In this document: positions 2,459 to 59,593 of the stretch, one piece after another
Numbering within the stretch: the first letter of the stretch is position 1
Layout of the letters: each line of letters opens with the position of its first letter
Assembly: GCA_964016885.1 (NCBI GenBank)
Contig: OZ024756.1
Coordinates: 16,616,001-16,680,000, forward strand
From: Eledone cirrhosa
Lineage: Eukaryota
Direction: 5' to 3'
DNA length: 64,000 bases
Notes under the pieces: generated by a model
The model's input: only the letters and a program-made list of their open reading frames with translations
What the model was told of the DNA's origin: nothing
The model's database searches: none
Translations under genes and position numbers: made by a program

Positions 2459-2519
2459 TAAACAGTCAAGCACACTAACCAGGCAGCCAGTGTGCTAAAT
2501 TATAAGAAAGTCTTCTTAC

Positions 2520-14600: not shown

Positions 14601-14613
14601 TCTTCTTATATAG

Positions 14614-14655
<42 letters not shown>

Positions 14656-24356: not shown

Positions 24357-24402
<46 letters not shown>

Positions 24403-32518: not shown

Positions 32519-32670
32519 TCAATAGAAGGGTGTGGTCGATGACGTGGCAGTGGCATGTGGGGGGAGCAGAGGCACATCAAAGAAATCACAGACGCCTTCA
32601 CTGTCATCCAAATGGAACTGATAGTCTCTTTCACTGGGCGGAGGACTGAGGCGCAACAGAGGTTCCAAAC
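32519..32670 (-). CDS. E2F4: E2F4/5 paralog B last exon ([50 protein letters not shown])
   Basis: TTTTCAG acceptor; Rb/p107/p130-binding transactivation motif; TGA stop. Confidence 0.93.
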
Positions 32671-35600
32671 CTGAAAAATAATTAGAAAAATGTGACAAAA
32701 AATTTATTTCAAACATGGCTTGCTTTAACCCTTTAACATTTAAACTGGGCGTATCAGGCCTGAATTCTCTCACCTCTTTCTGTTCAAACCGGCTGCTCAT
32801 ACTGATGTTAAGGTTTTGTTCTCAAAATAAATAATATAAAAATCTCATAGATTCGATATTATCTGAGATAATTTTATAAGGTAAAGACTTTACCATGAAA
32901 ATATAATAGTAAATATAGAGTAATGTAAATGATAAAGGGTTAACCCTTTCATTACCCTATTTCTGATAATAGACATTGCTAAATGAGGACGGTATGTTGA
33001 ACCCCAGCAACACAAAAAACAAGAGCTGTTAAAAGGACAAATGAACTCCTCAGAGTCAACAGCCAAAATTGAAAAGATATAAAATTGAAGCCTTTAGCAT
33101 TTAAACTGGCCATATCCGACCAGAATTCTCTCACCTCTTTCTGTTCAAACTGGCTGTAACTGGCCACTCATACTGATGTTAAAGTATTGTTCTCAAAATA
33201 AATAATATCAAATCTCATAGATTCAATATTATGTGAGATAAAGCCTTTACTGCGAAAATACAATAGTATATATAGAGTAATGTAAATGCTAAAGAGTTAA
33301 CACTTTCATGAGTATATTTTTAATGAAATACACTATTTCAATTAGTTAATGAAGAATTTTGAGGGATTTACTAAAATTATCAATTATTTCATTACTAACA
33401 TAGTAACGTAATGTAATGTTCTTATGTAAGATTATGTTGGGAGGTTTTAATTTATATTGGAAACCTTTAAAATGGGTGGTTATATTTCATAAAATCAGAG
33501 CAATTTTTGGCCAGAGTGGCAACAAAAGGGTTAATCTGATGCAAAATTAGTATTGTTTGTACTTATCAAGAATGTCTTATTAATGCAGTTTCATGTAGTA
33601 AAAGACTTACGATACCAAATCACCCAAAGACACCTTAGGTTCTACAATACCATGCTGCTGGTTTTAAACTTTTGTTATGTTCCAAACACCAGATTAATAC
33701 TGAAAAGTTAGTCATATAACTACATCCTTCCAAATTTTTGGTTATTTTTAAATGAGTTAAAAACCATAGGCATTGTCTTCAGTGCCATTCATTGGAAATA
33801 TGGTAATGGAAGGGTTGAAGTTTTATAATTATCTAAAAACCTTTCATCCTTATTTTATGTAAGAACCTTTGTAAAGTTATGTTCCATTAGAAATATGGCA
33901 ATGGAGGCGTTTTAGTGTTTATATTTATCTAAAAAGACTTTTATTATTAATTTATGTAAGAACCTTTGTTAAGTTATGTTCCAAATACCAGATTAATAAT
34001 GGTTTCTGATTTAGACACATGGGCAACAATTTGGGGAGAGGGAAAGTCAATTAAATCAACCCCAGTGCATTACTGCTACTTTATTTTATAACCCCGTAAG
34101 GATGAAAGGCAAAGTTTAACCTTTGTGGGATTTGAATTTAGAGAGCAGGGAGCTGAAAGAATTACTACAAAGCATTCTACCTAATGTTCTAACAATTCTG
34201 CCAATGTGTTGGCAACAAGGAATATACAAGAAGATAATTAATTAAAAGATAATTAATTAAAACGAACCTTCGGCTGAAATGAATCCAAAATCATCAATCA
34301 ATTCTTTACCAGCTGGAAATAATAGAAATTGATATAAATTTAGATGGTGATGGTGGTGATGTGTAGTGGTGGTGGTGTGGTGTAGTGATGGTGAGTCGAA
34401 CACTTAACCGCTAGGCCACTGTGATATGTAGTAGAAGTCAGAATGAGACTAATTCTTTCTAAAAGAAGTTTTCTGGACTGGAGCAGTGTGAAGTATCTTG
34501 CCTAAGACAACGTGCTGCCTGGTCAGGAAACAACTTACAATATAGAAATTATGACTCACCCTGTAAAGTGGTCATGCTGGTGACACAACAAAAAGCGTCC
34601 AGTCCAACCTGAAAAGTGGTCATGTTGGTGACATGACAAAAAGCCCCTAGTCCACCTTGTAAGGTGGTTAGAAGGGTATCAAGCTGTAGAAACCAAGTCA
34701 AAATACAGATCCCTATGAGCAAGATGTGGGTCATCTGACCTGAATTGTCTCATAATACGACCTGCCTAACCAATGCAAGTGTGGTAAATGTACATTAACC
34801 CTTTAGCATTTAAACCAGCTGCATCCAGCCAGAATTCTCTCACCTCTTTCTGTTCAAACCAACTATAGCTGGCCACTCATACTTATGTTAAGGTATTGTT
34901 CTAAAATAAATAACATCATCAAAATGTCATAGATTTGACATTATGTGAGGTAAAGCCTTTACCCCAAAAATACAATAATAAATATAGAGTAATGTAAATG
35001 CTAAAGGGTTAAAATATGATCCTAAGAACCCCCCCCCCCCCTCCACACACACACACACACATGCCAACCACAAAACTACTCTGATATATAGAATAAAATG
35101 TAGTACAGGTTCACAATCTTTTATCTGAAAACTGAACATTTTTTCCAGGATGTCGTCTGCATGCCAACGCTTGCATTTGGCACCAAACTTGACCTGAAAT
35201 GACCCACAGTCAACCCAGGTCATGCAGTTGTGTCTCAATGCTGCTACCAGCCAGACAAAAATCGCCTCTGCTGCTCACGGAAATTTTGTTTATTTAAAAA
35301 AAATTTTTTTTTGCTTTAAAATCTACACTAAAAATCTTCCTTTCTGAAATCCAAAAAGTGTCTGGTCCCATGGTTTTCAGATAAGAGATTGAGAAGCTGC
35401 ACTTACTAAAAGAAGTTTTTTTGTATGATAATGCTGATGATGATAATTATCATGATCCTATCAACCTTTAGACCAGGCATGTCAAACTCGCGGCCTTTTA
35501 CAAGCACATTTGCGGCGCGCACAAAGGTTTTTAAAGCGCGAGCATGTTTTATCTTTGTAATATAAAATAATTGTGTCTACTTTTGGCACAAGGCCAGCAA

Positions 35601-38600
35601 TTACCCAGTACATTACTGGTACTTTATTTTATCGACCCCCGTAAGGATGAAAGGCAAAGTTAACCTCGGCGGGATTTGAACTCGGACTATAAAGGGCCGT
35701 AACTCTTTGCTGCAAAGCATGGCATCCGACCCTCTACCGATACTGCCAATCCACCACTCTTTGTAATATAAAATAATAAAAATTAGTTGTAATGTGTGCA
35801 ATTAATTGTAATGTATGTAATTAGTTGTCGTGTGTGGCCCTCAGACAACACATATGTGACCCATGTGGCCCTAGGGGACCCTCAGTTTGACATGCCTGCT
35901 CTAGACAACTCTGATATATAAAAAGTAACTGTAGTACTTACTATAAGAAGGTTTTGTGCTGTTAAAAAGAAGATCATTTGTGAGGTTATCGGTAAGATTG
36001 GTATTGGTCAGTTGACTGTTAGTATGAGCTGTAACAGAAATTAAACCATAGTTTTGTAATGAGTTAATTATTTAACAGATCATCATAAAACTTACAGACT
36101 CGTTCTCTCTGTTTATCTAGCAATCCTGCGACTGGTAGATAATGGTTTCTACTTTAGGCACAAAACCAACCATTTGGGGAGGAAGGGAAAGTCGATTAAA
36201 TCGACCCCCCAGTGCATTACTGGTACTTTATCCAGTGCATTACTGGTACTTTATTTTATCGACCCTGTAAGGATGAAAGGCAAAGCTAACCCCAGCGGGA
36301 TTTGAGTTCAGAATGTAAAGGGCCATATCTCTGTGCTGTAAAGCATGTTGTCCGACACTGTACCAATTTCTATTCGAAAGAATAATGGAAACATTGTTTC
36401 CATGGTCCAAATTGACAAGATCCACACCACTCAGTAAGTGAATGAGGTCTGGGATCTTGTCGGTTGACTTCCTCTCCTCCTCCTCTTTTTGTCTACCTCT
36501 TCTCTCTGTCAAGAGAGAAGAGGTAGGGGAGAAAGGAGAGGCAGAGGAGGAGGAAGAGAGGGAGGAGAAACAAGAGAGAGCGAGAGTGAGAGAGAGAGAC
36601 AAGAGAGAGCGAGAGAGAGACAAGAGAGAGCGAGAGAGAGACAAGAGAAGGAAAGAGAGAAAGAAAATGGAACAAAAAAGAAGAGTTGAAAAGAAAACAT
36701 ACGTAATATATTCGTATATGGCTGAGATAGTTTGCGTGGTGATGACCGTGTTGTCATTCGATTTAAAGGTGAAAGTGGAGTTTTCAGTGGAGATTTCTGG
36801 AAAATACATAAGGAGAAAGGTGAGAACAACACCAACAGGTGTTTTCACCCTTTTTTTACTGCATTTCTAATAAAATACACTACTTTAACCTTTTAGTGTT
36901 CAAACCGGCCAGAATTCTCTACCTCTCTGTTGAAACTGGCTGTAACTGGTCGCTCAAACTGATGTTAAGGTATTGTTCTCAAAATAAATACTTTCAAAAT
37001 CTCATAGATTCGATATTATGTGAGATAATTATGCGAGGTAAAGCCTTTACCATGAAAATACAATAGTATATATAGAGTAATGTGAATGTTATGTGAGATA
37101 TTATGTGAGGTTAAGCCTTTACCATGAAAATACAATAGTATATATAGAGTAATGTGAATGTTATGTGAGATATTATGTGAGGTTAAGCCTTTACCATGAA
37201 AATACAATAGTATATATAGAGTAATGTAAATGTTATGTGAGGTAAAGCCTTTACCGTGAAAATACAATAGTATATATAGAGTAATGTAAATGTTATGCGA
37301 GGTAAAGCCTTTACCATGAAAATACAATAGTATATATAGAGTAATGTAAATGTTATGCGAGGTAAAGCCTTTACCATGAAAATACAATAGTATATATAGA
37401 GTAATGTAAATGTTATGCGAGGTAAAGCCTTTACCATGAAAATACAATAGTATATATAGAGTAATGTAAATGTTATGCGAGGTAAAGCCTTTACCATGAA
37501 AATACAATAGTATATATAGAGTAATGTAAATGTTATGCGAGGTAAAGCCTTTACCATGAAAATACAATAGTATATATAGAGTAATGTAAATGTTATGCGA
37601 GGTAAAGCCTTTACCATGAAAATACAATAGTATATATAGAGTAATGTAAATGTTATGCGAGGTAAAGCCTTTACCATGAAAATACAATAGTATATATAGA
37701 GTAATGTGAATGTTATGTGAGGTAAAGCCTTTACCATGAAAATACAATAGTATATATAGAGTAATGTGAATGTTATGTGAGATATTATGTGAGGTTAAGC
37801 CTTTACCATGAAAATACAATAGTATATATAGAGTAATGTGAATGTTATGTGAGATATTATGTGAGGTTAAGCCTTTACCATGAAAATACAATAGTATATA
37901 TAGAGTAATGTGAATGTTATGCGAGATATTATGTGAGGCAAAGCCTTTACCATGAAAATACAATAGTATATATAGAGTAATGTAAATGTTATGTGAGGTA
38001 AAGCCTTTACCATGAAAATACAGTAGTATATATAGAGTAATGTAAATGTTATGCGAGGTAAAGCCTTTACCATGAAAATACAATAGTATATATAGAGTAA
38101 TGTAAATGTTATGCGAGGTAAAGCCTTTACCATGAAAATACAATAGTATATATAGAGTAATGTAAATGTTATGCGAGGTAAAGCCTTTACCATGAAAATA
38201 CAATAGTATATATAGAGTAATGTAAATGTTATGCAAGGTAAAGCCTTTACCATGAAAATACAATAGTATATATAGAGTAATGTAAATGTTATGTGAGGTA
38301 AAGCCTTTACCATGAAAATACAATAGTATATATAGAGTAATGTAAATGTTATGCGAGGTAAAGCCTTTACCATGAAAATACAGTAGTATATATAGAGTAA
38401 TGTAAATGTTATGCGAGGTAAAGCCTTTACCATGAAAATACAATAGTATATATAGAGTAATGTAAATGTTATGCGAGGTAAAGCCTTTACCATGAAAATA
38501 CAATAGTATATATAGAGTAATGTAAATGTTATGCGAGGTAAAGCCTTTACCATGAAAATACAATAGTATATATAGAGTAATGTAAATGTTATGCGAGGTA

Positions 38601-40307
38601 AAGCCTTTACCATGAAAATACAATAGTATATATAGAGTAATGTAAATGTTATGTGAGGTAAAGCCTTTACCATGAAAATACAATAGTATATATAGAGTAA
38701 TGTAAATGTTATGCGAGGTAAAGCCTTTACCATGAAAATACAATAGTATATATAGAGTAATGTAAATGTTATGCGAGGTAAAGCCTTTACCATGAAAATA
38801 CAATAGTATATATAGAGTAATGTAAATGTTATGCGAGGTAAAGCCTTTACCATGAAAATACAATAGTATATATAGAGTAATGTAAATGTTATGCGAGGTA
38901 AAGCCTTTACCATGAAAATACAATAGTATATATAGAGTAATGTAAATGTTATGCGAGGTAAAGCCTTTACCATGAAAATACAATAGTATATATAGAGTAA
39001 TGTAAATGTTATGCGAGGTAAAGCCTTTACCATGAAAATACAATAGTATATATAGAGTAATGTAAATGTTATGTGAGGTAAAGCCTTTACCATGAAAATA
39101 CAATAGTATATATAGAGTAATGTGAAAGCTAAAGGGTTAAAAAAAAAACTATACATAAATTTCAGGGACTTCCGTCTGTCACGTAATTTGTGTGTGTGAA
39201 CGTAGTGTGTGTAAAAGGAAGGAAGGAAGGGATGGTGAAAACCCATAGCAAAACAGTGGCTGGCGTTCTATTTGCTACACTGTGTATGAGTACGTGTGTG
39301 TAAATGTATGTCTGTGAGTGTGTATTTTTGTAAGAGTGTCTGTGTTTGCGCGTTTATATTTATATACTCATACATATAAATGTATAAGTATGCACATACA
39401 CACATATGCGTCAGAGTGTTGAAAAATTCCTAGTCATTAAAAATTTGGAGGAATTTAATAAGATAATACCTAGAGATGAAAAGGGCATCCATCCATAGAA
39501 AGCTTGGCAAACAAAGAGTTTGAAGGAGCCTTCAGTTGTGTCGAAGACATGACAACCTCTCCAGTGCACTGGGTGAAATGAGACTGTATGTAAGTGAGAT
39601 GCAGATCCCTGGCCTGTCTGGGTGGTCAGTAGCCACGCTTCAGTACTGACTTGGTCTATATAGACATGTCCAACCCTTACTAGCAGGGAAAGCAGACATT
39701 AAACCGATGATGATGATAATGAATTCATCTTTTCATTAAGTTGATGTTTGAACATTACTCAACAAAATTTCTTTAAATATTTTGAGAGAAGGTTTTAATT
39801 TTAACCCTTTAGCATTTAAAATGGCCATATCCAGCCAGAATTCTTTTACCTCTTTCTGTTCAAACCGACTAACTGGCCACTCATACTTATTTTAACCCTT
39901 TAGTATTTAAACCAGCCATATCCAGTCCTAAATCTCTCACCTCTTTCTATTCAAACAGTGCTGGGTGCTTTTTTGCCGTGGCACATCCACGATCACTTTA
40001 CAATGGAATGATAGGTACCCCAGTCCCTATCATCTCATTTCTACAGCTGAGTAAACTGGAGCAATGTGAAATAAAGTGTCTTGCTCAAGGAAACAACACA
40101 TCACCCGGTCTGAGAATTGAACTCACAACCTTTCGATTGCAAGGCCAATGCTCTAACCACTAAGCCATGTGCCTCCATATATATATAATATACACATAAA
40201 AAATGTGGGTAATATTAAATATTATCCAATTACAAGTATGTAATTGTGGTTGGATGAAATGATTGTTATTAAATGTTCTTAAACATTCTTTGATTGTTAT
40301 TTATAAA

Positions 40308-40363
<56 letters not shown>

Positions 40364-43300
40364 AGGGAGTGTAACTTGGAGTTACTGCTTTCCCTGATAG
40401 CAAGGGTTGGACATGTCTATATATATATATTGACAGTCGATCGACTTTTGTCAAATTAGACTGAGGAAACAATGTTTCCATTGGTCTTTTCAATTGCTAA
40501 ATCTATCAGTCGCAAATCCAGGTAGAAGGAGCAACATGAAATAAAGTGTCTTGCTCAAGGGCATAACGCATCACCCACCCAGTCCAGGAATCAAACTCAC
40601 AACCTCACGATTGCAAATCCAATTCTCTAACCACTTAACCGTGTGCCTTCTCTTTCTCTCTCTCTATACACACACACACATGGTGCTTTAAAGGAATCCA
40701 GCTATAGAAACCATGCCAAAACCTGAATGCTTATGAGATGCCACTACCCTAATCTAGGACACTACTTCCAATTAAGTACTGAGATACACAGCATCCCTGT
40801 GCATCGTAAACAGCAAATAAAAGGGAGTCAGGAAGGGCATTCAACTGTAAAATATTGCCTCAAAATGTCTCCGTCAACCCATGCTAATATGGGAAAGTCG
40901 ACAAAAAACAGTGGTGATGGTGGTGGTGGTGGTGGTGGTGGTGTTGGTGATGGTGGTGGTGGTGTTGGTGGTGGTGATGGTGTTGGTGATGGTGTTGGTG
41001 ATGGTGTTGGTGTTGGTGATGGTGATGGTGTTGGTGTTGGTGTCGGTGATGGTGTCGGTGATGGTGTCGGTGATGGTGTTGGTGTCGGTGGTGTTGATGA
41101 TGGTGGTGGTGTCGGTGGTGTTGATGATGGTGGTGGTGTTGGTGTTGGTGGTGGTGGTGGTGTTGGTGTTGGTGGTGGTGTTGGTGTTGGTGTTGGTGGT
41201 GGTGGTGGTGATGGTGTTGGTGGTGGTGTTGGTGGTGGTGGTGGTGTTGGTGGTGGTGGTGGTGTTGGTGGTGGTGGTGGTGTTGGTGGTGGTGGTGGTG
41301 TTGGTGGTGGTGGTGTTGATGATGGTGATTATAATGATGGTGACAGAGCGAGACAGTCACCCAACCAATCGTGCCTCAAGTGGGACAATCCCCGTCTAAC
41401 CCATGCTAGCGTGGAAGATAGATCTTAAACGATGATGATGATATACTTTTCTCTGCTGTTTGTGTGGAGTCTTTAAAGGAGACTTGGCTTCGTTGACTGC
41501 AGCAATTGGGGTCTGATTCTGTGACATCTCCATTTTTTTTACATCCTCGTGGAACGGTGGAACCTGGACAACTTCTGCAAACGGCGAGTCGGTGTCTTTG
41601 TTCACTAACATTACATTGATGGGACCAGAATTACTCTTCAAGTGGATCTGGTACTTCCTTAAGATTCCTGGACCCTGAAAAACAACAACAGCAACAACAC
41701 CAATATAAAGAAACTTAAAGACAAAAAAACAACAGCAAGCATTTTAACCCTTTCCTTACCCTATTTTTAATGAAATATATATTTTGTATTTTATTTAGTT
41801 AATTAAGAATTTGGGAAGGATTTACTAAAATGGTAATTTCATTAAGAAGGCATGTATCTTTTTTTTTCTTCTTCACCCACATATCCCTTGTGAGCGGGGG
41901 GTTGGGGGGGGGGGGGGGGGGGGGTTGACAAAGGCTTCAAATAATCTTTTAATATTTCCATTTTCAAAGGATTTAGTAACTTTCATTATTTATCTGATAT
42001 TCAGAGAATAGTGGAACAAATGTCCTTATATAAAAAAAAAAGTGATGTAATGTTTCTAGATAAATAAAATCATTTGAAAATAAAATCAGGGCAGGTATAG
42101 GGAGTTTGGTATCAAAAGGGTTAATGATACATTGTATCTGTAGAATACCCAGCCATTACATGTAGGTACCTCAGTTGGTTAACAACTTGATATTCATCGT
42201 TGAAACCAACAGTGAACCATTTGTTTTATATTCCCTTGTCTTTAGCCACTTATATCTGGCAGAGTCCTCAAACACTCCTTCCAGCAGGTCCTGTCAGCAG
42301 TAACCATCTCCAATTGATCAGGCTGGACCACCAAACAAGACCAGCCAAGCTCATGGTCTACCCCTGGGTCTCTTGTCAGTTGGTTGGTTTGTTTTGCCCA
42401 TAAAATCTGTCCAGCGATTCTTTCCTGAGATATTCTAATTCTAACCACATGCCCATATCATAGCTGTGTTGTTAATTAAAAAAAGTAGCATCTCTACCTG
42501 GAGTGACTCCCTGATCTCCGAGCCAAGCACTATTGAGTAATGTTACTCCAAAGACCCTTTAGTGGAACCCCATTTCAACCACTTGTATTCTAACCACATA
42601 TCGGAGCTGTAATCTCTCAGTTCAGAGAAATAGCAGCTCTACATGGAGTGACTATCTGATCTCCAAGCTACACACTAAGTAATGTTATTCCAAAAACCTT
42701 TTGGAGGAACCCCATGTGTAAACTAACAAAATATGTGTTCTCATTTATTCATTGATATTGAGACATTGACACAACTTAGAGATTTTGTGCTACTTACTAT
42801 TTCAGGTAATGGAACACCAAGTTGTGTCCCTGATGGTGCCTGTACCGATAGTAAAATACTGCCAGGAAATACACTGCAAACATCTTCGTAACTCACATAG
42901 GCCATCTTCATACCTACAAAAGAACATTGAAGAATTTACTTTATCAAAGTAGCATTTAAACCGGCCATATCCAGCCAGAATTCTCTCACCTCTTTCTGTT
43001 CAAACCGGCTGCTACTTATGTTAAAGTATTGTTTTAAATAAATAATATCAAAATCTCATAGATTCGATATCATGAAAATGCAACAGTATAAATAGAGTAA
43101 TGTAAATGCTAAAGGGTTAACCCTTTTGTGGCAGTATTTATAACGAAGTACTCTGTATTCTAATTAATTGATTGATGAAGAATTTTGAACAATTTACCTA
43201 CACAAACAACAGCATCAACACACACCAATACCACCAACACCATCAACACCTACATGAACACCATCATCTATACAAACACCAATACCAACAACATCGCCAC

Positions 43301-46300
43301 AAACACCTAAACCACCAACATTAACAACATTACGAGCTACACCAACACCAACAATATCGACATCATGACCAACAACACCACCACCACCACCAACAATATC
43401 AACACCTACATAAACACCAACACCAACATTACCAACACCACCACCAACAACATTACCACCAACACCACCATCAACACTGTCTATTATATTTACAAAACAA
43501 GAGACAGAAGATACGAACTATTGGTTGCTTCTTCGGTGATATTTTTGATGCTCTGCTGTATACAGTTTTTATGGGAGTCAAGGGCTTTTTCCTGTTGGTC
43601 CAACATTGATGTTTCACTCTTCAATGTTAACAATCGATTCGATATTTCTCTTGAAGTACAGCCTGGACCTGCTCCTCTGAGAGAGAGAGAGAAAGAATGA
43701 GTTAAAATAAAACCAACATCAGCCCTTTTGATAATAAAAATTGTCTGAAACCATCCCTTGCTTCTATGATACAAAACTTTATTTTATAAAATGTATATAT
43801 TTATTGAAAAAACATTCCATCATAATTTTATGTTAGAACCTTTAACTCTTTAGCATTCACATTACTCTATATATATACTATTATATTTTCATAGTAAAGG
43901 CTTATCTCACAATATTGAATCTATAAGATTTCGATATTATATATTTTGAGAACAATACATTAACATCAATATGAGTGGCCAGTTACGGTCTGTTTGAACA
44001 GAAAAGAGTGAGAGAATTCTAGCCAGATATGGCCGGTTTAATGCTAAAGGTTAAGTTTTATTGCAAACCACCTGAAACCATACCTGGTTCTATGATACAA
44101 AATTGTTTATTTGGCAAGTTTTCTACAGCTGGATGCCTTTCTTATCACCAAACACTTTACAGAGTGTACTGGGTGATTATTATTATTATAATGAACATTA
44201 ATCCCACCGAGCTTAGCTTTTCCTTTCATCCTTATGGGGTGGATAAAATAAAATATCAGTAACTCACTGGGGTCGATTTATTTGACTTTCCCCTCCTGCC
44301 CAAATTGCTGGCCTTGTGCCAATAGTAGAAACAATTATTATTATTATTATTGTACTTACTTCCATTGGATACTGTTTTTAGATTTCTTCTCTATCAAACC
44401 AATTCCTTCTAGAACATTTGTGATGTCATATATCCGTCGTTTCTGTCTTACAGCCAATGTATCTGCAGCCTGTCATGGAAATTAGAGAGAGTAGAGGGAG
44501 CACTTAACCAACACCACACCACATCACACTACAACATACAACACTATACCACAACACCATACTACACCACCACAATGCACCATGTGCCATGGAAATTATA
44601 GAGTAGAGGGAGGACTTAACCAACACCACACCACACTATACACCACAGTACACCATATAACACACCACACCCTGTGTCATGGAAATTATAGAGTAGAGGG
44701 AGGACTTAACCAACACCACACTATAACACAGTACAACACACCACACCCTGTGTCATGGAAATTATAGAGTAGAGGGAGGACTTAACTAACACCATACCAC
44801 AGTACAACACCATATAACACACCACACCCTGTGTCATGGAAATTATAGAGTAGAGGGAGGACTTAACCAACACCATACCACAGTACAACACCATATAACA
44901 CACCACACCCTGTGTCATGGAAATTATAGAGTAGAGGGAGGACTTAACTAACACCATACCACAGTACAACACCATATAACACACCACACCCTGTGTCATG
45001 GAAATTATAGAGTAGAGGGAGGACTTAACCAACACCATACCACAGTACAACACCATATAACACACCACACCCTGTGTCATGGAAATTATAGAGTAGAGGG
45101 AGGACTTAACTAACACCATACCACAGTACAACACCATATAACACACCACACCCTGTCTCATGGAAATTATAGAGTAGAGGGAGGACTTAACTAACACCAT
45201 ACCACAGTACAACACCATATAACACACCACACCCTGTCTCATGGAAATTATAGAGTAGAGGGAGGACTTAACCAACACCATACCACAGTACAACACCATA
45301 TAACACACCACACCCTGTCTCATGGAAATTATAGAGTAGAGGGAGGACTTAACCAACACCATACCACAGTACAACACCATATAACACACCACACCCTGTC
45401 TCATGGAAATTATAGAGTAGAGGGAGGACTTAACACCACACCACAGTACAACATCATATAACACACCACAACACACCACACAACACCATACTGTGTGTCA
45501 TGGAAATTATAGAGTAGAGAGTGGATTAATTTAATCAACACTACACCACCATACACCACAGCATAACACAACACACCACCATACACCACACAGTGTGTCC
45601 TATGAAAATTATAGAGATGGTGGACTAACTTAACCAACAACAACACTAACATACTTGTCATACCACACCACAACCACCCAAGTGGGTTGACCGACTTCAA
45701 TATCAACACCACACCATCAACCACCCAGACTGGTCGACTAATTTCTCCAACATCACCTCATGAGTATTTCACAGATACGTGTACCTTTTAACATAATTCT
45801 CAGTCAGAATCAGTATGAAAGAATATAGGACAAGGCAGAAAAGTTTCCACCAACCCAATTTCAACTATAAGGCTTGAGTCAAGCCTATGTAAGGCTATGG
45901 TAAATGGCACTTGCCCAAGATGCCATGAAGTGGGATTCAACCTGGATCTTCATAATTGTGAAGCTAACTTTGTTGTAATGTGCATGGGAAAAACGAAAAA
46001 TAACTTACATCCCACACCTGTGTAGGTTTAGCTAGCCTGCTATATAGGTTTCTTGAGTCCCAGTTCTATCATAATGTCATTACATCTCACACGTATGAAG
46101 GTTTAGCTGGCCTCCTACAAGGTTGTACATCAGGAGGTATATTGGGTGTTTTAATGATAGGGGTCCCCGTTCTATTATGTGATTATTACATCTCACACCT
46201 ATGTAGGTTTAGCTGGCCTCTTACATGGTTGCACTTTCTAAGTTTCTGGGGTGTTTTAATGATAGGAGTCCCAGTCATAATATGTTGTTACAAATGATAG

Positions 46301-49300
46301 CTATGCAAGTTTATCTTGCCTCTTATGAGGTTGTACTTCATAGGAGGCATCTTGGGTGCTTTAATGATAAAGGCCCCAGTGATATATTGTGGTTGTTACA
46401 ACTCACACCTATGTATGTTTAGTTTGCCTCATACAAGGTTGCACTGGGTGTTTTAATATGAGTCCCAGTCATACCATGTTAGAGCTCACACACCTATGCA
46501 GATTTAGTTGGCCTCTTACAAGGTTGCACTTTCTAAGTTTCTTGGGTGTTGAGCCTCAGTCCTATCATAAAAAGCAATGTGAAATGAAATACCTTGCTTA
46601 AGAACAGGTGCCACCTCAGTTCAAGAATCAAACCCATGACCCCAGGTAACAGAATAGAATAAATGATCAAGAGGGATTTACCAAAGGAGACATGCACACA
46701 CATATACAAACTAACACAAACACACAATCATCGTTTTACGTCCATTTTCCACACTATATAGGTTAGACGAGTTGTCCTGTTGTGGGCAATGCTAGATCAG
46801 GTGACCATGTCTTGCTCATACAGAACTGATTTTGGCTTGGTTTCTACAGCTGGATGCCCTTCCTAACGCCAACCTCATTTACAGTGAGTACTGGGTGCTT
46901 ATTGTTGTGACACCTACACGACCACTTTACAGTGTGGACTGGGTTCTTTTTGTGATGACAGCTACATGACCACTTTACAGTGTGGGTTGGGTCCTTTTTG
47001 TGATGACACCTACACGACCACTTTACAGAGAGGACAGGGTGCTTTTTGTAATGACAGCTACATGACCACTTTACAGTGTGGGTTGGGTCCTTTTTGTCAT
47101 GACACCTACATGACCACTTTACAGTGTGGGTTGGGTCCTTTTTGTCATGACACCTACACGTGGGAGGGTGGGGTGGGGGCATACTGTATGTTCATATGTA
47201 CAAGATATTTCTAATACACACAAAACGTACAGGTTCTAATACATATACATACAAGCGCTAACACATACAAGGTCTTTATATAATATCTATGTACATGCAC
47301 TAACAAACACATATACAGGTTCTAATACACACATACATACAGACTGTAATACATATATACAAACCCTAACATATATTTACAAAGCCTTTATAACTACACA
47401 AGCTCTTCTATTCAATTATATCCCCAAGTCTGTGACAAAGTGTAACCCCATTAACACCCACCCCCCGCTCCACCCTCTCACTCACAAACACACCGCCCTT
47501 TCCTTCCCCACCCACATCAGGCTTGTATTAATCATATCCTTATCACTAAAGGAGCAAGAAGAGCGAAGATGAGGGGGATCAAATGCAATCTCTTTTATTG
47601 ATATTTAATTCTGCATCATCTGCATCATCATCACTGATGCCAGGTAAAGGAGGGGGTAATAAATATGAGGGAGGGAGACAGAGAGAGATAATTTCCTGAA
47701 GTGAAATACTTCTTACTTCGCCATAGTTCATTAACCACCACCACCACCACCACAACCATCACTTAAATCCCCACTGCCATCGCCATCATTTAAATCCCCA
47801 CCACCCTCACTCAACTGAATACCTTCACTAATTAAATCGATATCTTATAATTGATTATCGTTAGTATAATTTTTTTCTAATTACACACGTAATCGGCAAG
47901 ATTACCAATTTATTAAATGCTCTGACATTAACCATGAAAATCTCCGATTAAAAGAAAAAAACACACAGAGGAAGATTACAAGGACAGAAACGATAAAGTA
48001 TAGCGATGAAAACAACAAAAGAACGAGTGAAATAGTGTAGTATTTCGGTGACAGGTGATAGTTATGTCTGTTTATAACTTAGTCACCGGTGTAGATAATC
48101 CAAATGACCCTTCGTTTCATCTTACCTTATGGTAACTTGAAATCGTGTTCAGATTACCGACAGGTAAGATGAAATCGATTTCAAAATTACCACCTATTAC
48201 ATTTTCAGATTACGCCCACAAATCATTCTCCAATTTCACCACCATCATCACTACTACTACTACAACCACCAGTACAATACCACTAATACTACAAATACTA
48301 CCACCACCAGTACTATAACTACTACCACCACCACCGTCAATACTACAACTATTACCACCAGTACTACTATTGGCAGAATCGTGAAGGCGTTGGGAAAAGG
48401 GCTTTACATTCCGTGTTCAAATCAACCAGAAGCTAACTTTATTTTTCATCCTTGCGGGGTGATTAAAATAAATACCAGTCAAGTACTAGGGGTTTCATAT
48501 AATGAACTACGCCCGGCTAAAAAACATTGCTGACTTTGTGCTTAATTTAGTAAACATTATTATGAAGGGTGGTGGATTGGCAGTATCGGTAGAGGGTCGG
48601 ACGCCATGCTTTCCAGCATAGTTACGTCCCTTTACGATCTGAGTTCAAATCCCGCCGAGGCTGACTTTGCCTTTCATCCTTACGGGGTCGATAAGATAAA
48701 GTACCAGTAATGCACTGGGTATTTGCTGGCCTTGTGCCTAAAATAGAAACAATTATTATGAAGGGTAGTGTGTTAGCAGAATTGGGAGAGCGCCGGATAA
48801 AATGGTTTGCAGTGTTTAGTTTCGACTTGAAACGCAAACGAACTGTAAACAAAATATTTTTACGTAGAAAATTAAAAAAATACTGCAATTGTAAATCCCT
48901 TAACCTCTTAACAGTTGTTAATCCCTAAAGTAACATTATTACTATATATATACTTATATAAACATATCTATATATACACACACATTTTCAGGATTGCTAA
49001 CAATCTTGTTTCTCGTGTGTGTGTGTGTGTGCGTGGGGAGGGGGGTATAGAATGAATCTACCATGGGTTCTAAACATTATAATGGGGGGGGGGGGGGGGG
49101 GGAGAAACTAGGTTCAAGCTATTCACTGTGTAATATGAAAACAATTTCAAAATACACCCGGAAGATAACTTGATACGGGATAGTTTGACGTCATTACACC
49201 GCTTATCAATAATTTACTGTCCCCTTATCGACCGTTTCACCGTGACGCTCTTAATTATGTATATATTTTAGGAAGAGACTATATAGCCGGTAACAGTGCC

Positions 49301-52300
49301 AGACACCATGAGTTGTTGTCCGAGTTAAGGCAATTGTTAAGACAATTGGAAATCTTTTCCACCACCAATTGTTAAAATTATTTAGTTGTCCATTCGTAAC
49401 GTACGTTACGCTTAAGTTACATCCACGTAAATAGATAAACAGAAGGGGCTGGTGAAACGCTATAGCGATGTGCGCTGCGTCCCTTTAGGGTTTACCGGCT
49501 ACATAGCCTATTCGTATATTTTAATAATATTTTACAGCAATACGCTTTCCATTATGTATATATTATGTTGATGAAAGTTAAAAGAAAAAGATTTTTTTTT
49601 TCTTATTTATTTCACTAGCCATGTATAACATTTTAAATATGAAAAAAGGTGCATAAAAGGGAAAAAATGTATGATATACTATTTGCAAAGAAGCGAATAA
49701 AAAGTTCTTAGGAATGGAATGAGGTGGTTCATTATTGAGAATGTGCTAATCAAGCTAGTGAGGCAATCGAGAAGGATTAGAGAAGAAAAAAAATCATCCT
49801 AATGTTGGATAAATGACAGTTACGTTCCTGTATAAAATCTATGGCATTACCGAACATGAAATTAATTAAAGCCTATTATTAAATAAAAATCGAAGCTATT
49901 CGGTAAATGACGAACGAGACTATAGAATAATGAAAATATTTAAATATTTTTTTTTAATTTCGTCAATATTATCGTATTTTTCGTCATGGAAAATGTATCT
50001 CCACAAAATCCTATTTAAAAATGCAAGAATTACTGAGAAAGTTGTACGGAAACCAGGTGCGACACCACACACGCGCGCACTAAACTAGTTTTTGAAATTA
50101 GGTCGGAAATTCGTTCAGAGTTATCTCCCCTGCTAGTCATGAAAACAACCTTAAATTGTTATCAATTTTTTTTTTTTCAAATCATTTGAAGAAATTAGGT
50201 TATGCTTTTCCCTTTAATTTTATTTCATTTTTAAATTCTAAATAAAGAGGAAAATTATTTTGAGCTCATGGCTTTTTATTCAGTATTTTCTTATGCCGAA
50301 TTTTCAGTTGTGTCTTAACCGAGCGTGTGAGAGAAGTTTCACTTAGAAACCTCGAAATTTGGAAAACGTCCAAGAAAACGAGAGTTAACAATGGTATTTA
50401 CTATAACAGGATTACTTTTTATGTGGTATTTAATAATAATATTATTGTTGTTAATAACAATATTAAAGGATTAAATATTTATCCTTCATATTGGAACAAA
50501 ATCTTAAATTACACAGGGTGACTGTTATACTTATTTCATCGACCCCAGAAGATTGGATGAAATGGCGTTATTCAGGTTTTATTTCTTTCTTCAACCCAGC
50601 ACGAGTAAAAATGAACTGGATCCAAAAACGTATCGAAACCGTTCTCACGTAGCTGGCTCGGTGAGAACGTATCTTTTGCCTCAAACTTTTTTTTTTACCT
50701 GAAAAAATCCTAGAAATCTATATTTAAGCGAAAGTAAAATGAGCAGTAAATATACAGATGAAGATAATTGAAACACATGGACGTTAACTGCATATTTTCA
50801 CTGACGCATGAAATAAGATTACCGAATGTCTGTGTCTCTTTCATACACACACATATATGTAAATTAAGTATAGAAATTTCTATTTCAGATTTTCACAAAA
50901 AACTTAACGTTTTCTCTGTATGTATGTATGTATGTATGTATATATATATAAACATTTCCTCTGTATGTATATGCATATGTGTGTACACATAGACGTTCGA
51001 TTAATATTTCATTTTTAATTTAAAATTTAAATCCCAAACTATCAAACTCAAGATCACCGAGTTTATTTTACACTTCAACTACAGGAAACGAAAATTCTCA
51101 GCTAATAATATATATATATATATTATAAAGATTAACCATACTCTACAACCCAGAGTATCGTGTACTCTTGAGTAATGGTCTAACCAGTTTCAAACTGAAT
51201 CCATCCCGATTTATATATATAACTATTTGTATTTAGAGAGCTATATACGAAAGTATATGATTGCCAAATAGTTTTATACAAAGCCCAATGCGTTTACTTA
51301 GTTTTAGGTGGGAGATACGAGAGATATTCTTAAGATAAAATATACAAAAAGATAGATGTACATACAGAGCATTTTCAACCAAAGATATATACACACATAT
51401 ATATATAATACCCTCGAATGAACAAATAATTATAATTGGTTAGCGGCATTTAAATATATATAATACAGAGCAAAAAACCCTTAATCGGGAATATTAACTG
51501 AAGTAGTGGTTCCCAACCTTTTCACTTCAAAGAACACTTATTAATTTTAAAGAAATGTTCTCAGACACCATGCAACAATTACTCCCCTTCTAGATTGTTA
51601 TACGAGAAGAATGACATCTAAAAGAGAAATGTTTATATTTAGAGAAGAATAGATACTCAAGAGTGTATATATTATTATGTTTATATTTAGAGAAAAATGG
51701 ATACCCCAATAGTGTGTGTGATGTGTTTTTTTAAATTTTTATTTTTTCTAAGCACTTGGAAATTTGATAAAAGTGAAATATTTATATATTTAAAGAAGAA
51801 TGGTGTTTCAATGACGTGTGTATACTATTGTGTTTATAACAAAGTGCTTGAAATGGGTTAGAGAAGGAAAGAAATATTTATAATAGTGTTTTGTAGTTTG
51901 CTAACGAAATACTTGAAAATTTGAATTTATCTCACGACACCCTCGCTAGACTAGGAATTATATAGCTTGTACAGTCGCATGTCTATCTACCTATTTCACC
52001 GAAACATTTCATAAACATTACAGAAAAGGAAAATTTTTGTGCTCATTTTTTACTTTTATCTTTCGTTTTAAGTCTCTTGTAATTATCACAGAAATTCAAC
52101 AGTATCTGTACAAAATGAAATACATTAGAGATTATTCATTACCCAACTTAAGGACAAATTTCTGGGAGGTTTAGGAGACTTAGAAACGAAAGAATGCCAC
52201 CATGCAGTTCCTTGAAATATTTTGTTTTTAAATAAAATGATTAAAATTATCTATGATATATATATATGTGTGTGTGTGTGTATTAGTCTAAACTAAAATA

Positions 52301-55300
52301 TCTTCCCAATACGACCTCCACACAGAAGAAATACCTTCAGTGTGGCCTGTCACACAACTCTTTATAGTTAATTATTAAATTATTATTATCATACTCGCAG
52401 ACATTATGAAAATCAAATCCCGCCGAGGTTATCTTTGCCTTTCATCCTTACGGGGTCGATAAAATAAAGTACCAGTAATGCACTGGATATGTGCTGGCCT
52501 TGTGCCTAAAGTAGAAACAATTATGAAAATTGTCTTTGTAATGTCACCTCAGTCGTTGCCCTTCTGACCCCAAAAAAATCATCCCTACGGGATCGATAAA
52601 ATAAAGTACCAGTCACGCACTGGGGTTGATTTAATCGACTTTCCCCTCCCCTAAAATTGCTGGCCTTGTGCCTATATAAGTAACTATTATTAGTAGTAGT
52701 AGTGTGAGAAATGGCCTACGTGCCGCTGTGGATATAATAACCATAGCTTGATGCTGACTATAAAGAAAGAAGTTATAGAGTGAGAAAAAAAGGGTTGAGA
52801 AACATAGTTAATGAAAGATAAGGTAAAAAAAGACAAGAAAATAGTAAATCAAAGAGAAAACAAGCTGTTCCCAGGATGTGTACACACAAACAAGAGACAT
52901 ATGGGGAAAGAAACAGAAAATGTTAAAGAGAAAACGAGTTAACCCTTTTGAAAATCACTTGGTGAAAATCACTTCTGCTTCTAATAAAGAAAAAAAACCC
53001 ATTCGTTATTTAAATTAAAACCTTACAACATAATTTTATATAAGAACCATATGTTAAGATGTGTTACAAATACAATGTTAAGAATATAATAATTCATAAT
53101 TTTTAGTAAATCTCTCCAAACTTTTCATTACTTAATTAAAATACGAGTGAGTGTATTTCTTTCTAGAAATATTATGAAAGGATAAAGTTTGAGAGAGAGA
53201 AAGGAAGAAAGAGTAACTAATAGAAAAAAAGAGAAGATTAATAGTGATAACAAGGGTGATCTATAGATAGAAGAGTTGTGAACTCAGTGGAACTAAGAGC
53301 AAAATAGAAAGCAAGATATTGATACTCGGGGAGAGAGAAGTAATAAAGAACGGAGTAAAATGTGAAAGAGAGGGGAAAGAGAAATAGGACGAGAAAGAAA
53401 GCAACTATTTGGTTTATTTTGATATTTTATGTGTAAAACGCGTGGCTTAGTGGTTTAGGTGTTTGGCTCAGGTGATGCGTTGAGTCCTTGAGCAAGACAC
53501 TATTTCCCACTGCTCCAGTTAACTCAGCTGGAAAGAATTGAGTTGTACTTCTATTTCGAAGGGCCAGCCTCGTCATACACTGTGTCAAACTGAATCTCCC
53601 TGAGAACTACATTAAAGGTACGTGTCTGTGGAATGCTCAGTCACTTGCACTCTAATACAAGATAGACTGTACCTGTAATTCAAAGGGACTGCCTTGTCAC
53701 ATTGTCATGCTGAATCTCCCCGAGAACTACGTTAAGGGTACATGAGTTAGTGGAATGCTCAGTCCCCTGAACTACAAAAGTTGGACAAGATACTTATAAT
53801 TCAAAGTGTCAGTAATGTCATGCTGAATCTTCCTGAGAACTACGTTAAGGTTTATACATATCTGTGCACGTTAATTTCACAAGCTGAGTGACAGTTCAAT
53901 TAACTGGAACACTCGTCATCGTAACTGACGGAAATCCAATAGTAAATTCCCAGAACCAACACGAGAATGTTGGTGGTGGTGTTGAAATAAGGGTAGAAGT
54001 ACGAGGGTCGACTGAAAAGTTCAAAGGCTGACCAAGATACTCTCATGGAACGACCAAATGAGGTTTATATTTCAACAGAGTCCCTAGAAAGAAACGATGC
54101 AGTTATTAATAAGAGTTGGAATTAATGCATGCAAGATTCCACAGCCCTAGCATTACTCTTTCATAATCAGCCTATGACCAAGATACTCTCATGGAATGAC
54201 CAAATGAGGTTTATATTTCAACAGTCCCGAGAAAGAAACGAGGCTGTTATTAATAAGAAAAGTTGAAATTAATACATGCAAGATTCCACAGCCCTAGCAT
54301 TACTCCTTCAAAGTCAGCCTATGAACTTTTCAACTAACCCTACTACCCACAACCACATGCTCACTCCAGATATCAAACCAACTTAGAACCAGTAAATTAA
54401 TTGATTATTTTAATGTTTCTTGTTTTGTTTTGTTTTTCTTCCTTTTAAGTTTTCTTTTATTATAAACTACAAAAAAAAATCTTTCAGTTCAGGGAGGCTA
54501 CGAAAAAATTCAACAAAAAATTTAAATTTTTTTTTAGTGGCCTTTGGGCATTTTTTTTTCACCTTTTTAAACTTATGCTTCTGTTGCCCCTTGTCTTCTT
54601 TTTGTTTTTCTTTCTCTCTTGCTTTTGTTTCTTAACTATAAGGGATACTAACTAGACATCTCTCTATAGCCTGTTATGGCTTACTGGCTTCCGTAATTAG
54701 ACTGCAGACTTTCGACTATATCGACCCTAGTACATTTTTCTTTTCAAGTCTAGTAATTATTTTGCCGATCTTTTTTTTTTCTTAGCCGTTGTGACGGGGC
54801 ATATAGGAAAATGAAAAAAAAATCTCGTCCGCTTCACCGGATTCATTGCGTCCATATGATAAGATTAAGAGTTCCTCGTCGGTTCGTGTGTATGTATGTG
54901 TACATGCATACATGACATACATATGCATACAAACACACGACATACATAATTATTTTCATTTACAGAAATTACCGGAAGTTGTATATATTAAAAAGGAGGT
55001 TTTCAATAGTTATTTTATATAAGGCCAAACCGATAATAAAATATCTCTCTATTTATTAAACATATTAAATACCGCATACGTGTTTGCGTTTTCCTGTTTC
55101 TTTCTCTCCCATAATTTAGCTGTCCGACAAAAAGAAACCGATAAAATAAGTACCAGACTGGGAGAAGAACAAAAATGGTACTTGTGCCGATATGATCTAT
55201 TAAAACCCCTCGAAGGTGGTGCCCTAGCAAGGCCACAGTCGAATGACTGAATCCAGCAAATGAATGAAAAGTCTAAATTGGTTATTTGCTCTCAATTTAT

Positions 55301-55446
55301 TTCATATATATATAAGTGAGAAAGCACACGGGTATATTTAAAGCTTTTTTTTTTCTTAAAAACGACAGAATGGATATTTTTATAACTGTTACATTAAATG
55401 GATTTAAGTTTTGTCAAATATTACCGGCTTCGATCGGTATGTCAAT

Positions 55447-55486
<40 letters not shown>

Positions 55487-56968
55487 GAAGGAAGTGTGGT
55501 AAGGAACCAGGTGGACCATAACGCACCAGAGTACTCAATACTTAGGGTAGTAGAGTGGGTAATAGGAAAATGTTCAAGACCCCGACGGCAGAGCTCAAGC
55601 CGTTTCGACGGCTAGAGCTGTGCCGTCGGGGTCTTGAACTTTTTCCTATATATATATATATATATATAATAAAGTGTCGGGACCCAACGGTTGAGTTCTT
55701 ATACATACACATATATATACGAGTGTTTTAAATACCTATGTAGATAAAATATTCAGACATTAACTGAATGTGCATAACAATTATGTGAGCAGAGCACATA
55801 CGGTAAATATTTTTATGATAAACTTAAAAGTAATTTCAAACACGCGACATGGCAGAAAAATGTAATTTACCGTCACATTTCGCCTGCATACAAAATGCAT
55901 CATTTTAAGTTATATACGAGGTGTCCCCTAAAATGTCTACACAGCATTCTAACAAAAATGTGTATACATTTTTATGACACACCCTGTATATGCGTGTGGG
56001 GTGCCGAGGGGGTAACCACAATTAAAGAAGGTACTCAATGTTGGTAGAGTATAGGCATCTTTATTATATATTTAAAAAATAACTTTTATAGGGTTAGAAT
56101 AGTTTCATTCGCGTGAAATCAAAACATTCCTGATGATTTCATTCGAATGAAACAGTTCTAGTCCTGTAGAAGTGTAATTTTTATATATAATTGTTTCTAC
56201 TTTTGGCACAAGGCCAGAAATAACTCAGTGCATTACTGGTACTTTATTTTATCGACAACCGTAAGGATGAAACGCAAAGTTAACCTCGGCATATCATATA
56301 TACAGGGTGTCCCTAAAAAATGTATACTCACTTCAACAGCATTCTAATAAATGTGTATGCATTTTTGGGGGACACCTTGTAAGTATGTGTGTGTGTGTAT
56401 GTGTAACGTTTATCACGATCGTACAGCCCCATGCGATGAAGTGGCGGAAGCCCGAGAGAGGAATAGCATACATATACCTTTAAAGTGAATCAAATAGGAT
56501 ATATTAAGAAACAAAATAGGAGAATGAAGTGCCTGTCGGAGTTTGTGAAAAAATAAGGGGAGACACGTGCATGAATTAAAAAGATTAAATCGAGTGTAAG
56601 GAAAGGCTGAGGAGGGAGCACAAGGACTAAGGAGCAATAAACACTAAAATAGAACACGTTTGTATGTGTGTGTGTGTGTATGTATATATATATATATATA
56701 ATGTGTGTGTATACTATTTTTGCCTTTGTGAGTATGTGCGTATATATATATGACTGGCACTCCGTCGGTTACGAAGAGTGTTCTATTTAATCCGATCAAC
56801 GGAACAGCTTGCTCGAGAAATTAACGTGCAAGTGGCTGAGCATTCCACAGACACGCCTACCCTTAACGTAATTCTCAGGGAGATTCAGCGTGACACAGAA
56901 TGTGACAAGGCTGGCCCTTCGAATTACAGGCACAACTCATTTTTGTCAGCTGATGTATGTATGTATAT

Positions 56969-57011
<43 letters not shown>

Positions 57012-58859
57012 AATTATTCATTAAAGTAATTACCAATTACGGCTTTAAATTAAATATTGATTTACGATCGTGTGTGTGTATTTATATATACATACACACG
57101 AAGCTTTATCAAACGCTTACCATATAGATAGACCCATCACACACATAGTAGGCAGAACGTGGAGTATAATGTACCGTTTCCATTTTCTATGGACGGGAGA
57201 AGGACCTTCGATAATTTTCTATAATTTTATTATTACATTAGTTGCTCTGGCATTTTATTTGACCTTTTTCTTTCATTTCATCTAATTGCGTTTCAGAGTG
57301 GTTCATTCATTTCAGATTTACCGTTCTACTAATGCAAAAGTCATGTGGTTTACTGTAAATTACAGATATTGGACCCACCCAAAAAATCTTACAAGATGCA
57401 ACGAACCTCATGGGAGGTTAGCTAAACCTACATAGGTGGGAGCCAAAACAATAGCAACGAAATACACAGCTAAGTCTGATGGTGGTTGAGCATATGCCGA
57501 ACATTCTCCTTGTGATACGTGAGCAATAGTGCCTTCATTTCTCAAGTATAAAGTATTAATAAAGCATTATTATTCTTATTAATATCAATCATTTGCAAAA
57601 CTCAATAGAAAAATTATTAAAGTTTGCGAAAGCGAAATGGGTGCGCTAAAGTCCAAGATCGCCATGGTCTGGTAGCTTAGCTTTAGATTGAATGAGAAAG
57701 ACTGATGACCACCCAGTCCTTTTTTTTTAAAACTATCTTGAACTACATTACATAGCTAATGAGTGTACTTCCCTTCTTGATCTATGGAGTGTGATTTGGG
57801 GGAGATTTGGCAGTTTTTTTCTAGCGTATCGAACAACTAAGTAGAGATCTTTCATTGATTATAGAGGTTTTGTTTTTTGTGGGGGGTGTTTTTACACACT
57901 CGAATAAAAAAATATGTACAGTGCGCCACAGAACAATTGCTAAATATTATTATTATTTATCGAAACAACCTGTACTGTAATTCTAGTTTTTGGAGATGAA
58001 AGTTTACTCCGAGATACTGTTAAACGACCTATTATAGTTTTCAACGCAACCTGGCCGCTTTTAGTTTTTGTAGAAAGTTCAGGCCTACTCGTAGACCAGC
58101 TAAAAGTGAGCAACCAAATCGCCTTCAAATCACAATACACTGCCTTTAAAAATAAAGGGAGGTCAATCGTTCTAATTTAGCCCTAAGCCAGCCCCAACCT
58201 ATGATGATCAATGGTACTTCCAGTCGTGACCACCCATCTTTATATTTATTATCAGACACAAGACGGCATAATCCAATGTTATTTGTGGTATTTACTGCAG
58301 TTTAATCTCCACCACTTCCCGACTTTGTTTCCTCAAAACTTTCTTAAGCACTAGGCCGGCAATTGGAGGTGAAATGTCGATTTTTAATCGACCCAGTACT
58401 CCACTTGTACTTTATTTTATTGAGCTCTTTGAGATTTGAACTCAATATCTATAGAGGCGGAACACATACCGCAAAGCAGTTTGTCAGCAACTCTAATGAT
58501 TCGACCAGCATATATTTTTATGAAAATTTGCAGATATAAATTTAACGATAATGTTCATAAATTTTTTTTTTTTTCCTTTTCGTCATAATTCGTATTTTTA
58601 GAAATTACACTACGGTCTTTGTACAATATCAGCAAGGTATGTTGTTCGTAATCTGAGGAAAGATTTGACTGCTATGTTCAGCAGGTGGAATAATGCCGAT
58701 ATACATACTTCCATGGGTTTGACAGTCCCAAATTAAACTATAAACATAAAAGACAAAACTAACTATGGTAGTTGGTTTAATAAGAGTCAATGAGGGTTTA
58801 TAAAGGAATTTTAAGGTACTTGTGGGTGAGGGGCACTTGTTACCTTTAGATGTCCCACA

Positions 58860-58904
<45 letters not shown>

Positions 58905-59137
58905 TATATATTTTGGGGATACCCTGTATACATACATATATCAGGTTGATCGGATTCCTGAAGGCGAAACTCAGGAGTGTCCCCTGTCAATCTACTAAAT
59001 TTGATTCTACTACCAGTATTGGATCACCTCATCAATAGATCTTGTTTTTTTATTTATAATTATATTAAGTCCACAACCCTCAACAGATCTTCATTCTCCT
59101 TCATATATATATATTATTCAGATGTACGAATAAAACC

Positions 59138-59191
<54 letters not shown>

Positions 59192-59414
59192 TATTTTGGG
59201 GACACTCCTGAGTTTCGCCTTCAGGAATCCGATCAACCTGATATATGTATGTAGATATATGTGTGCATATATATATATGTGTGTGTGTATGTGTGCGTAT
59301 GTGTCTGTATATGTGCATATATATGTGCGTGTGTGCATGTGCATATATATATATATATATATAATTTATATCCCTTAGCTTGAAAAACTACGAGTTTATG
59401 TCTATATGTGTGTG

Positions 59415-59447
<33 letters not shown>

Positions 59448-59555
59448 CGAAGCGATTGAAATAAAGAGAAAATCCAGAGCAGAAAAAAAGTTGTCAAAAA
59501 TTCCATGACAAACACATACCTTCTAAGGTACTCAGAGTTTCCCCGAAGCGAGTAG

Positions 59556-59593
<38 letters not shown>

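Follow-up and report, generated by a model that had tools for sequence, protein, structure and literature searches.

The window analysed here is a stretch of 64,000 nucleotides (nt) from the octopod Eledone cirrhosa (assembly GCA_964016885.1, contig OZ024756.1, positions 16,616,001 to 16,680,000), in which two E2F4/5 genes lie in tandem on the minus strand, copy B (59801-32519) upstream of copy A. The features of both genes given below are on this strand, with positions counted in the window. The exon models of both copies are annotated octopod proteins mapped onto the genome. In copy B (32519..59801; tblastn of orthologs) nine exons were found, with a frame of 369 amino acids that is intact with the shifted junction discussed below, and copy A (1..25141) likewise has nine exons and an intact frame of 348 amino acids, its last two exons lying outside the window, as far as 5.8 kb ahead of its first position. 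The feature of interest is intron 3. In copy A it reads as a clean intron of the minor, U12-dependent spliceosome, and in copy B it appears to have passed to the major, U2-dependent spliceosome through shifted splice sites, a change that would have been fixed once and early in the history of copy B; we put the probability of this reading at roughly 60%.

The assignment of the genes to E2F4/5 is based on the presence of the E2F DNA-binding and CC-MB domains and on their grouping with E2F4/5, and the best solved-structure matches were human E2F4 and E2F5. A protein search of the genome with exon 3 of copy B matched copies A and B only. Counterpart adjacent pairs are annotated in Octopus vulgaris (CAI9737685.1, CAI9737686.1) and Argonauta hians (GAB1601981.1, GAB1601980.1), and likewise in O. 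sinensis and O. bimaculoides. XP_029647495.1 and XP_014780553.1 are further B ortholog entries, alongside CAI9737685.1 and GAB1601981.1. In a tree of 22 rows the A group and the B group were each supported at 100/100 and the two together at 99/96, with Sepia-type rows as their sister; on this topology the duplication is younger than the separation from cuttlefish and older than that of Argonauta from Octopus. Between copies A and B, synonymous divergence (dS) was 1.72 and nonsynonymous divergence (dN) 0.156 in exons 1, 3, 4, and 9. This difference, the intact frame of 369 amino acids, and an identity of 88.6-90.5% between the copy B protein and the Octopus B proteins all speak against copy B being a decaying pseudogene, an explanation that, together with assembly error (see below), is scarcely credible.

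Intron 3 of copy A begins, after an exon end CA, at 16783 with the donor GTATCCTTT (16775..16783), which matches RTATCCTTT, and its branch site TTCCTTGAC (14168-14160) agrees with TTCCTTRAY at 9/9 positions and lies 11 nt from the AG of a CAG acceptor (branch site and acceptor together at 14150..14168), the exon resuming with G at 14149. On both strands of the window (128,001 letters) RTATCCTTT occurs once and TTCCTTRAY twice, and since the aligned intron is bounded by the only donor motif and by one of the two branch motifs, chance is not a satisfactory explanation. By these signals, which had been correctly described in an earlier note on this DNA, intron 3 of copy A is a clean GT-AG U12 intron; the splice sites of copy A were read from the assembly only. 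The second perfect branch motif, TTCCTTAAT followed by CAG at window positions 8763-8773, lies inside intron 4 of copy A with no U12 donor to pair with and is possibly there by chance. Among the small nuclear RNA genes of the minor spliceosome, U11 and U12 were sought and gave two matches and one match above the cut-off, respectively, and U1 is also present in the genome.

The same intron position could be followed in other E2F genes. A second E2F gene of this genome, on contig C4, carries ATATCCTTT and TTCCTTAAT at the aligned junction (G000:C4 6900822, L077, and ~6898855, L074). The apparent last two bases of that intron are AA, 11 nt after the branch A, and it is a probable AT-AA minor intron. 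The two E2F introns of this genome that are certainly of U12 type, in copy A and in the C4 gene, therefore both combine RTATCCTTT with TTCCTTRAY 11 nt from the intron end, and copy B has neither. A metagenome scan, in which no octopod DNA was found, yielded 62 loci, and in 60 of them the exon end was readable (L063 and L073 were dropped, the match being too short). At the aligned junction 36 loci have GTATC, 2 another GT donor, and 22 no GT; the 36 correspond to 16 distinct junctions and are mostly closely similar sequences. Judged from copy A, the C4 gene, and these 36/60 loci, the ancestral intron at this position was of U12 type. The minor intron of vertebrate E2F4 and E2F5 presumably stands at exactly the same codon as octopod intron 3. 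Introns classed as minor are present in human and mouse E2F4 and E2F5 and in zebrafish e2f4 (PMC11347168 Table S6), so that the family with its conserved minor intron is the same, and what is particular here is an octopod-specific tandem duplicate.

Two metagenome loci (L026, 1519-1540; L060, 559-1120) have U2-like donors exactly at the ancestral U12 position (AG/GTAGGA and AG/GTATGT, the slash marking the exon-intron boundary) and look like in-place conversions of the same intron. In many closely similar loci (L029-L068) the intron has GTATCTTTT donors and branch motifs of the CTTAAT type but lacks a pyrimidine tract, a softening of the U12 signal across the lineage.

In copy B, exon 3 (43519..43676) ends 4 nt before the old U12 position and exon 4, from ortholog mapping, occupies 42798..42913. 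The predicted intron 3 between them (42914..43518) is a GT-AG intron of 605 nt in phase 1, as against phase 2 in copy A. At the old position the donor context is TC/GTATCTTC from 43514, and the relic U12 donor GTATCTTCT (43506..43514) departs from that of copy A at +6 (C>T) and +8 (T>C). It does not conform to RTATCCTTT, and its score in the U11 register was 4.0/6, compared with 5.5 for the clean introns and 4.5-5.0 for the U12-like donors of the metagenome loci. The predicted U2 donor GTTCGTAT (43511..43518) starts, after an exon-final A, with GTTCGT from 43518, and its positions +5 to +8 coincide with the opening four bases of the old U12 donor. On the acceptor side the stretch TTCTTTTGTAG ends at 42914, and the predicted U2 acceptor (42914..42924) consists of a pyrimidine tract and TAG, with 8/11 pyrimidines. 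The 7 nt thereby added to exon 4 (GTATGAA, 42907..42913) end in AA (42908-42907), which is aligned with the AG of copy A. The decayed donor, the AA at the homologous acceptor, and the pyrimidine tract with TAG 7 nt upstream, all reported in the earlier note, were thus found where it had placed them. Its further statement that copy B has no clean U12 branch site holds in that no perfect one is present, but a look-alike, TTCTTCAAT (42926..42934), matches TTCCTTRAY at 7/9 positions, 13 nt from the TAG. As 1/14 other acceptors and 88/1562 YAG sites reach the same score, this candidate relic is only weakly identified. A very high-copy repeat (window 42950-43120) fills most of the 3' part of the intron and ends about 36 nt before the TAG, and similar copies are found in other introns of both genes.

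A base error restoring AG at 42907-42908 would have undone this picture. Three short-read runs were available, all from one sample, possibly the assembled one, and behaving as genomic DNA. Contigs over the acceptor (42686-42978) contained 0 other letters in 3/3 runs and contigs over the donor (43477-43838) 0 other letters in 2/3 runs, the third (X3) having no depth there, which argues that copy B carries no base error and counts against an assembly error within the limits of one sample.

With the old donor of copy B there is no canonical in-frame end near the aligned position; within 6 nt only GG, AT, AA, and AT occur, and joining it to the nearest in-frame AG would delete conserved residues. 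When GT or GC donors between 43570 and 43481 were paired with AGs between 42960 and 42871, and four non-canonical ends were added for the old donor, 20/58 pairs were in frame and free of stops. Only two of them give the length of the B orthologs with M-A-Y intact: 43519^42913 (N-S-M-K-M-A) and the GT-AT junction 43515^42909 (N-S-S-K-M-A). The pair 43518/42913 is the sole canonical one among all that does so. It restores the frame with 3 additional nt, i.e., one residue more than the N-S-Q-L-A of copy A. The TAG had been thought to be in frame only with a donor 4 nt upstream of the old one; three stop-free GT or GC donors (43563, 43551, and 43518) in fact serve it in the interval searched, and 43518 is the only one of them that keeps the end of the coiled coil.

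The annotated B orthologs read N-N-T-K-M-A-Y in O. vulgaris/sinensis and in O. bimaculoides and N-S-T-R-M-A-Y in A. hians, the same length as N-S-M-K-M-A-Y. The extra residue is present in 3/3 B ortholog proteins (four named species) and in none of the A orthologs. In 107 scorable proteins out of 139 the junction had the ancestral length in 102, one more residue in 4 (three B proteins and one Sepia isoform), and two more in 1. The residue directly follows the coiled coil, at a point where aligning human E2F4 (5TUU) leaves a gap of one residue. In the AlphaFold model of the O. vulgaris B protein the long helix ends at 125-130, and the predicted local distance difference test is below 50 at 131-137, too poor at the junction.

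These orthologs bear directly on the possibility that the old positions are still in use (43515^42906, N-S-S-M-A), either as a GT-AA intron or through A-to-I editing of AA to an AG-like end. Such a junction would keep the ancestral length and an open frame, and cephalopods are heavy RNA editors. However, the extra residue occurs in all B orthologs, the branch look-alike would be 20 nt away, and the fold of the 761-nt region is only marginally better than that of shuffled sequences (z -1.72), with no long duplex at the acceptor. GT-AA accounts for 1 intron, or 0.001%, of the conserved animal minor introns in PMC10639083 (Table S1). The use of the old positions is therefore very improbable. GT-AA had been named as the alternative to be distinguished from U2 conversion; the ortholog length excludes it as the main form, and the live competitor is GT-AT.

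Under that competitor the minor spliceosome would still splice intron 3 of copy B as 43515^42909, alone or as a twintron beside the U2 pair, with the AT at 42911-42910 inside the 7 nt added to exon 4. The protein length would equal that of the orthologs and the branch look-alike would be 17 nt upstream of the AT. GT-AT introns make up 319, or 0.433%, of the conserved animal minor introns (PMC10639083 Table S1), and the AT-AA-looking U12 intron of the C4 gene suggests that odd acceptors are tolerated. That intron, however, has a perfect donor and branch site, and in copy B both are degraded. Moreover, the TAG lies between the branch look-alike and the AT at 13 nt, near the 11 nt of the clean introns, and with the old donor it would shift the frame, while the in-frame GT-AG pair with its pyrimidine tract would become a coincidence. 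The GT-AG junction is favoured over GT-AT for its canonical ends, its pyrimidine tract, and the two departures each in the old donor and the branch look-alike. We regard GT-AT splicing as improbable, and intron 3 of copy B probably uses U2 sites in this species. An experimental parallel is found in a human WDFY1 minigene, in which C-to-U changes at +6 and at the base facing U12 nucleotide 22 abolished U12 splicing and activated upstream U2 donors (PMC1874599). Copy B carries the +6 C>T and, if the branch relic is real, also C>T at the base facing U12 nucleotide 22.

Several observations weigh against the use of the shifted U2 sites, and some of them favour GT-AT. The shifted donor has GT, G at +5, and 6/11 Watson-Crick pairs with the U1 of this genome (other donors 5-9), but it lacks AG on the exon side, and by U1 duplex energy (-2.0 kcal/mol, the next being -2.1) it ranks last among the 15 U2 donors predicted in the two genes. 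Of 404 GTAT sites on the strand, no more than 11, the old donor included, are as U12-like as it is, which places it above 97% of them. At the same intron, donors with +6T and an imperfect branch motif are found in many metagenome loci, so a T at +6 does not by itself imply that U12 splicing has ceased. The ortholog proteins come from annotation, and gene finders favour GT-AG; protein length, being the same for GT-AG and GT-AT, does not separate the two, so that the junction N-S-M-K-M-A predicted in the earlier note is borne out in its length, indirectly, and shares that length with its competitor. A one-residue gain may also arise without a change of intron type, as the two isoforms annotated in Sepia pharaonis (P0015, P0131) are distinguished by a single Arg at the junction (N-C-Q-R-L-A-Y), as would be expected from a 3-nt acceptor wobble. 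Short transcript-derived fragments spanning the B junction were sought and none was found, nor was any octopod junction read seen; among the best 120 of 2008 matches, Logan-derived proteins included none in the B group.

Weak donors are also predicted in introns 5 and 6 of copy B (41439-41446 and 36695-36702), and weak pairing with U1 is thus not peculiar to intron 3. A second GTTCGT donor, at intron 8 (34260..34267), has a strong exon side, AAG; it had been assigned to exon 7 and actually follows exon 8 of 9. Immediately behind the old donor the two copies agree at 5/7 positions. This similarity was considered as proof of continued U12 use and rejected, as it does not exceed the 1-5/7 seen at +7 to +13 in the six other introns without conversion.

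The route by which the shifted sites of copy B may have arisen can be reconstructed from the donor. The U1 of this genome pairs with CAG/GTAAGTAT, and where GT precedes a U12 donor by four bases the sequence is GTNNGTAT, in which +5 to +8 (GTAT) are supplied free for pairing with U1. Any GT or GC 4 bases upstream of a GT-AG U12 donor would borrow GTAT in the same way. In the octopod genes this dinucleotide would come from the Ser codon before the junction, AGC in copy A and AGT in copy B. In copy A it gives a latent -4 site, GCCAGTAT (16780..16787), with GC and 6/11 pairs with U1. No GT or GC was present at -4 in 18 distinct intron-bearing metagenome junctions, and the two U2-looking ones among them were converted in place, so it seems to be the Ser codon that opened this route in octopods. 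The -4 donor alone would shift the frame; the acceptor 7 nt upstream would restore it, with the addition of one residue. The intron removed by the U2 spliceosome would then run from the GT located 4 bases before the old donor as far as the TAG located 7 nt before the aligned acceptor. This acceptor could be a new AG, or exon 4 could have gained a few bases at its beginning by insertion or duplication, and the latter would explain why the branch relic stands 13 nt from the TAG. Afterwards the U12 signals of copy B, donor and branch site alike, would have decayed, with copy A covering the function. It was reported that 4-nt donor shifts are the commonest short donor shifts in human and mouse, in a study from which U12 introns were excluded (PMC2423196).

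As for the time of the switch, a single early event is the simplest account of an extra residue shared by every B row, and the switch is probably old. The description of the intron as caught between the two states was overstated, since the residue is common to a clade older than the Argonauta/Octopus split. The relics of the U12 signals in copy B appear to fit neutral decay: the 3/5 bases kept at the old donor are ordinary at neutral distances of 0.3-0.85 (P 0.48-0.90), and for 10/14 donor and branch positions kept P was 0.08 at a neutral distance of 0.85, 0.38 at 0.5, and 0.75 at 0.3. The low value at 0.85 and the high one at 0.3 would suit a more recent history in two steps, in which the U12 acceptor of ancestral copy B moved by 3 nt upstream in all octopods and both ends later slid by 4 nt in this lineage only; copy B of other octopods would then still use the minor spliceosome. 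The Sepia isoform shows that a 3-nt acceptor wobble occurs at this intron, and the T of the orthologs could span the old junction. However, where the single switch takes one event, this history calls for boundaries shifted twice and, at the exon end, for a double change from Gln to Thr, and the relics also fit an old switch at a distance of 0.5. We consider it unlikely, though less so than continued splicing as GT-AT.

The feature is real, and, compared with known systems, what copy B seems to add is a known outcome reached by a less-described, phase-shifting route. Conversion of U12 to U2 introns, described by Burge et al. 1998 (as cited in PMC2831892), is established and commonest for the GT-AG subtype (PMC2831892, PMC7367187, PMC6865273). 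As in those cases, a U2 intron has apparently taken the place of a GT-AG U12 intron, with the gene intact. Known conversions, as these sources present them, keep the codon position and phase and come about through +5 C>G, -1 G, or similar changes. Copy B differs from conversion in this strict sense and resembles it by way of shifted sites, as both boundaries apparently moved and the predicted phase is 1 instead of the 2 of copy A. The takeover by nearby sites of the other spliceosome is shared with the WDFY1 minigene, with the U2/U12 twintrons proposed as conversion intermediates (PMC8329584), and with Drosophila Urp, which switched from U2 to U12 via cryptic sites (PMC2831892). However, WDFY1 is an aberrant laboratory outcome and Urp ran in the reverse direction, whereas in octopods the change appears to be fixed, in frame, and from U12 to U2, with the unconverted duplicate adjacent. 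Tandem donors 4 nt apart likewise have overlapping GTs, in the set without U12 introns mentioned above (PMC2423196). Intron sliding also moves both boundaries (PMC2891723), but the term U12 is absent from that paper and its probable slides are multiples of 3. No such case appears in the consulted parts of PMC2891723 and PMC11347168, and the octopod E2F4/5 pair was not returned by literature searches, the coverage of which largely omits subscription papers.

It may be that GT-AG minor introns in general have a built-in exit, as any GT or GC standing 4 bases upstream gains a complete U1 site from their initial four bases, and that minor-to-major conversion is undercounted for this reason, a generalization we would hold only tentatively. 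As the -4 route changes the phase, surveys that compare introns at the same position would, if this is true, score intron loss and undercount conversion; in the pipeline of PMC10639083 an intron that has slid counts as lost, and sliding is taken to be very rare. How much minor intron loss is due to deletion and how much to conversion is an open accounting question, and copy B would be a concrete case of a route that such counts miss. The octopod pair would then show the two stages side by side as an experiment of nature, the latent site being visible in copy A and both spliceosomes possibly competing in copy B. That copy B escaped minor-spliceosome control, as the earlier note supposed, is a conjecture. 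The rate of U12 splicing as a limit on gene expression is disputed (PMC7367187), and an adjacent duplicate in the ancestral state permits a test within one genome of U12 restraint on E2F4/5 output. The scope of these considerations is one intron in one gene family, with a switch predicted from sequence.

Apart from intron 3, a tract of 139 nt over exon 2 of copy B (44346-44484) is identical to 18088-18226 of copy A. It comprises exon 2, which encodes the DNA-binding domain, with its flanks, while the other exons are near synonymous saturation, and read depth at the tract was about twofold in two runs. Gene conversion limited to exon 2 probably explains this identity.

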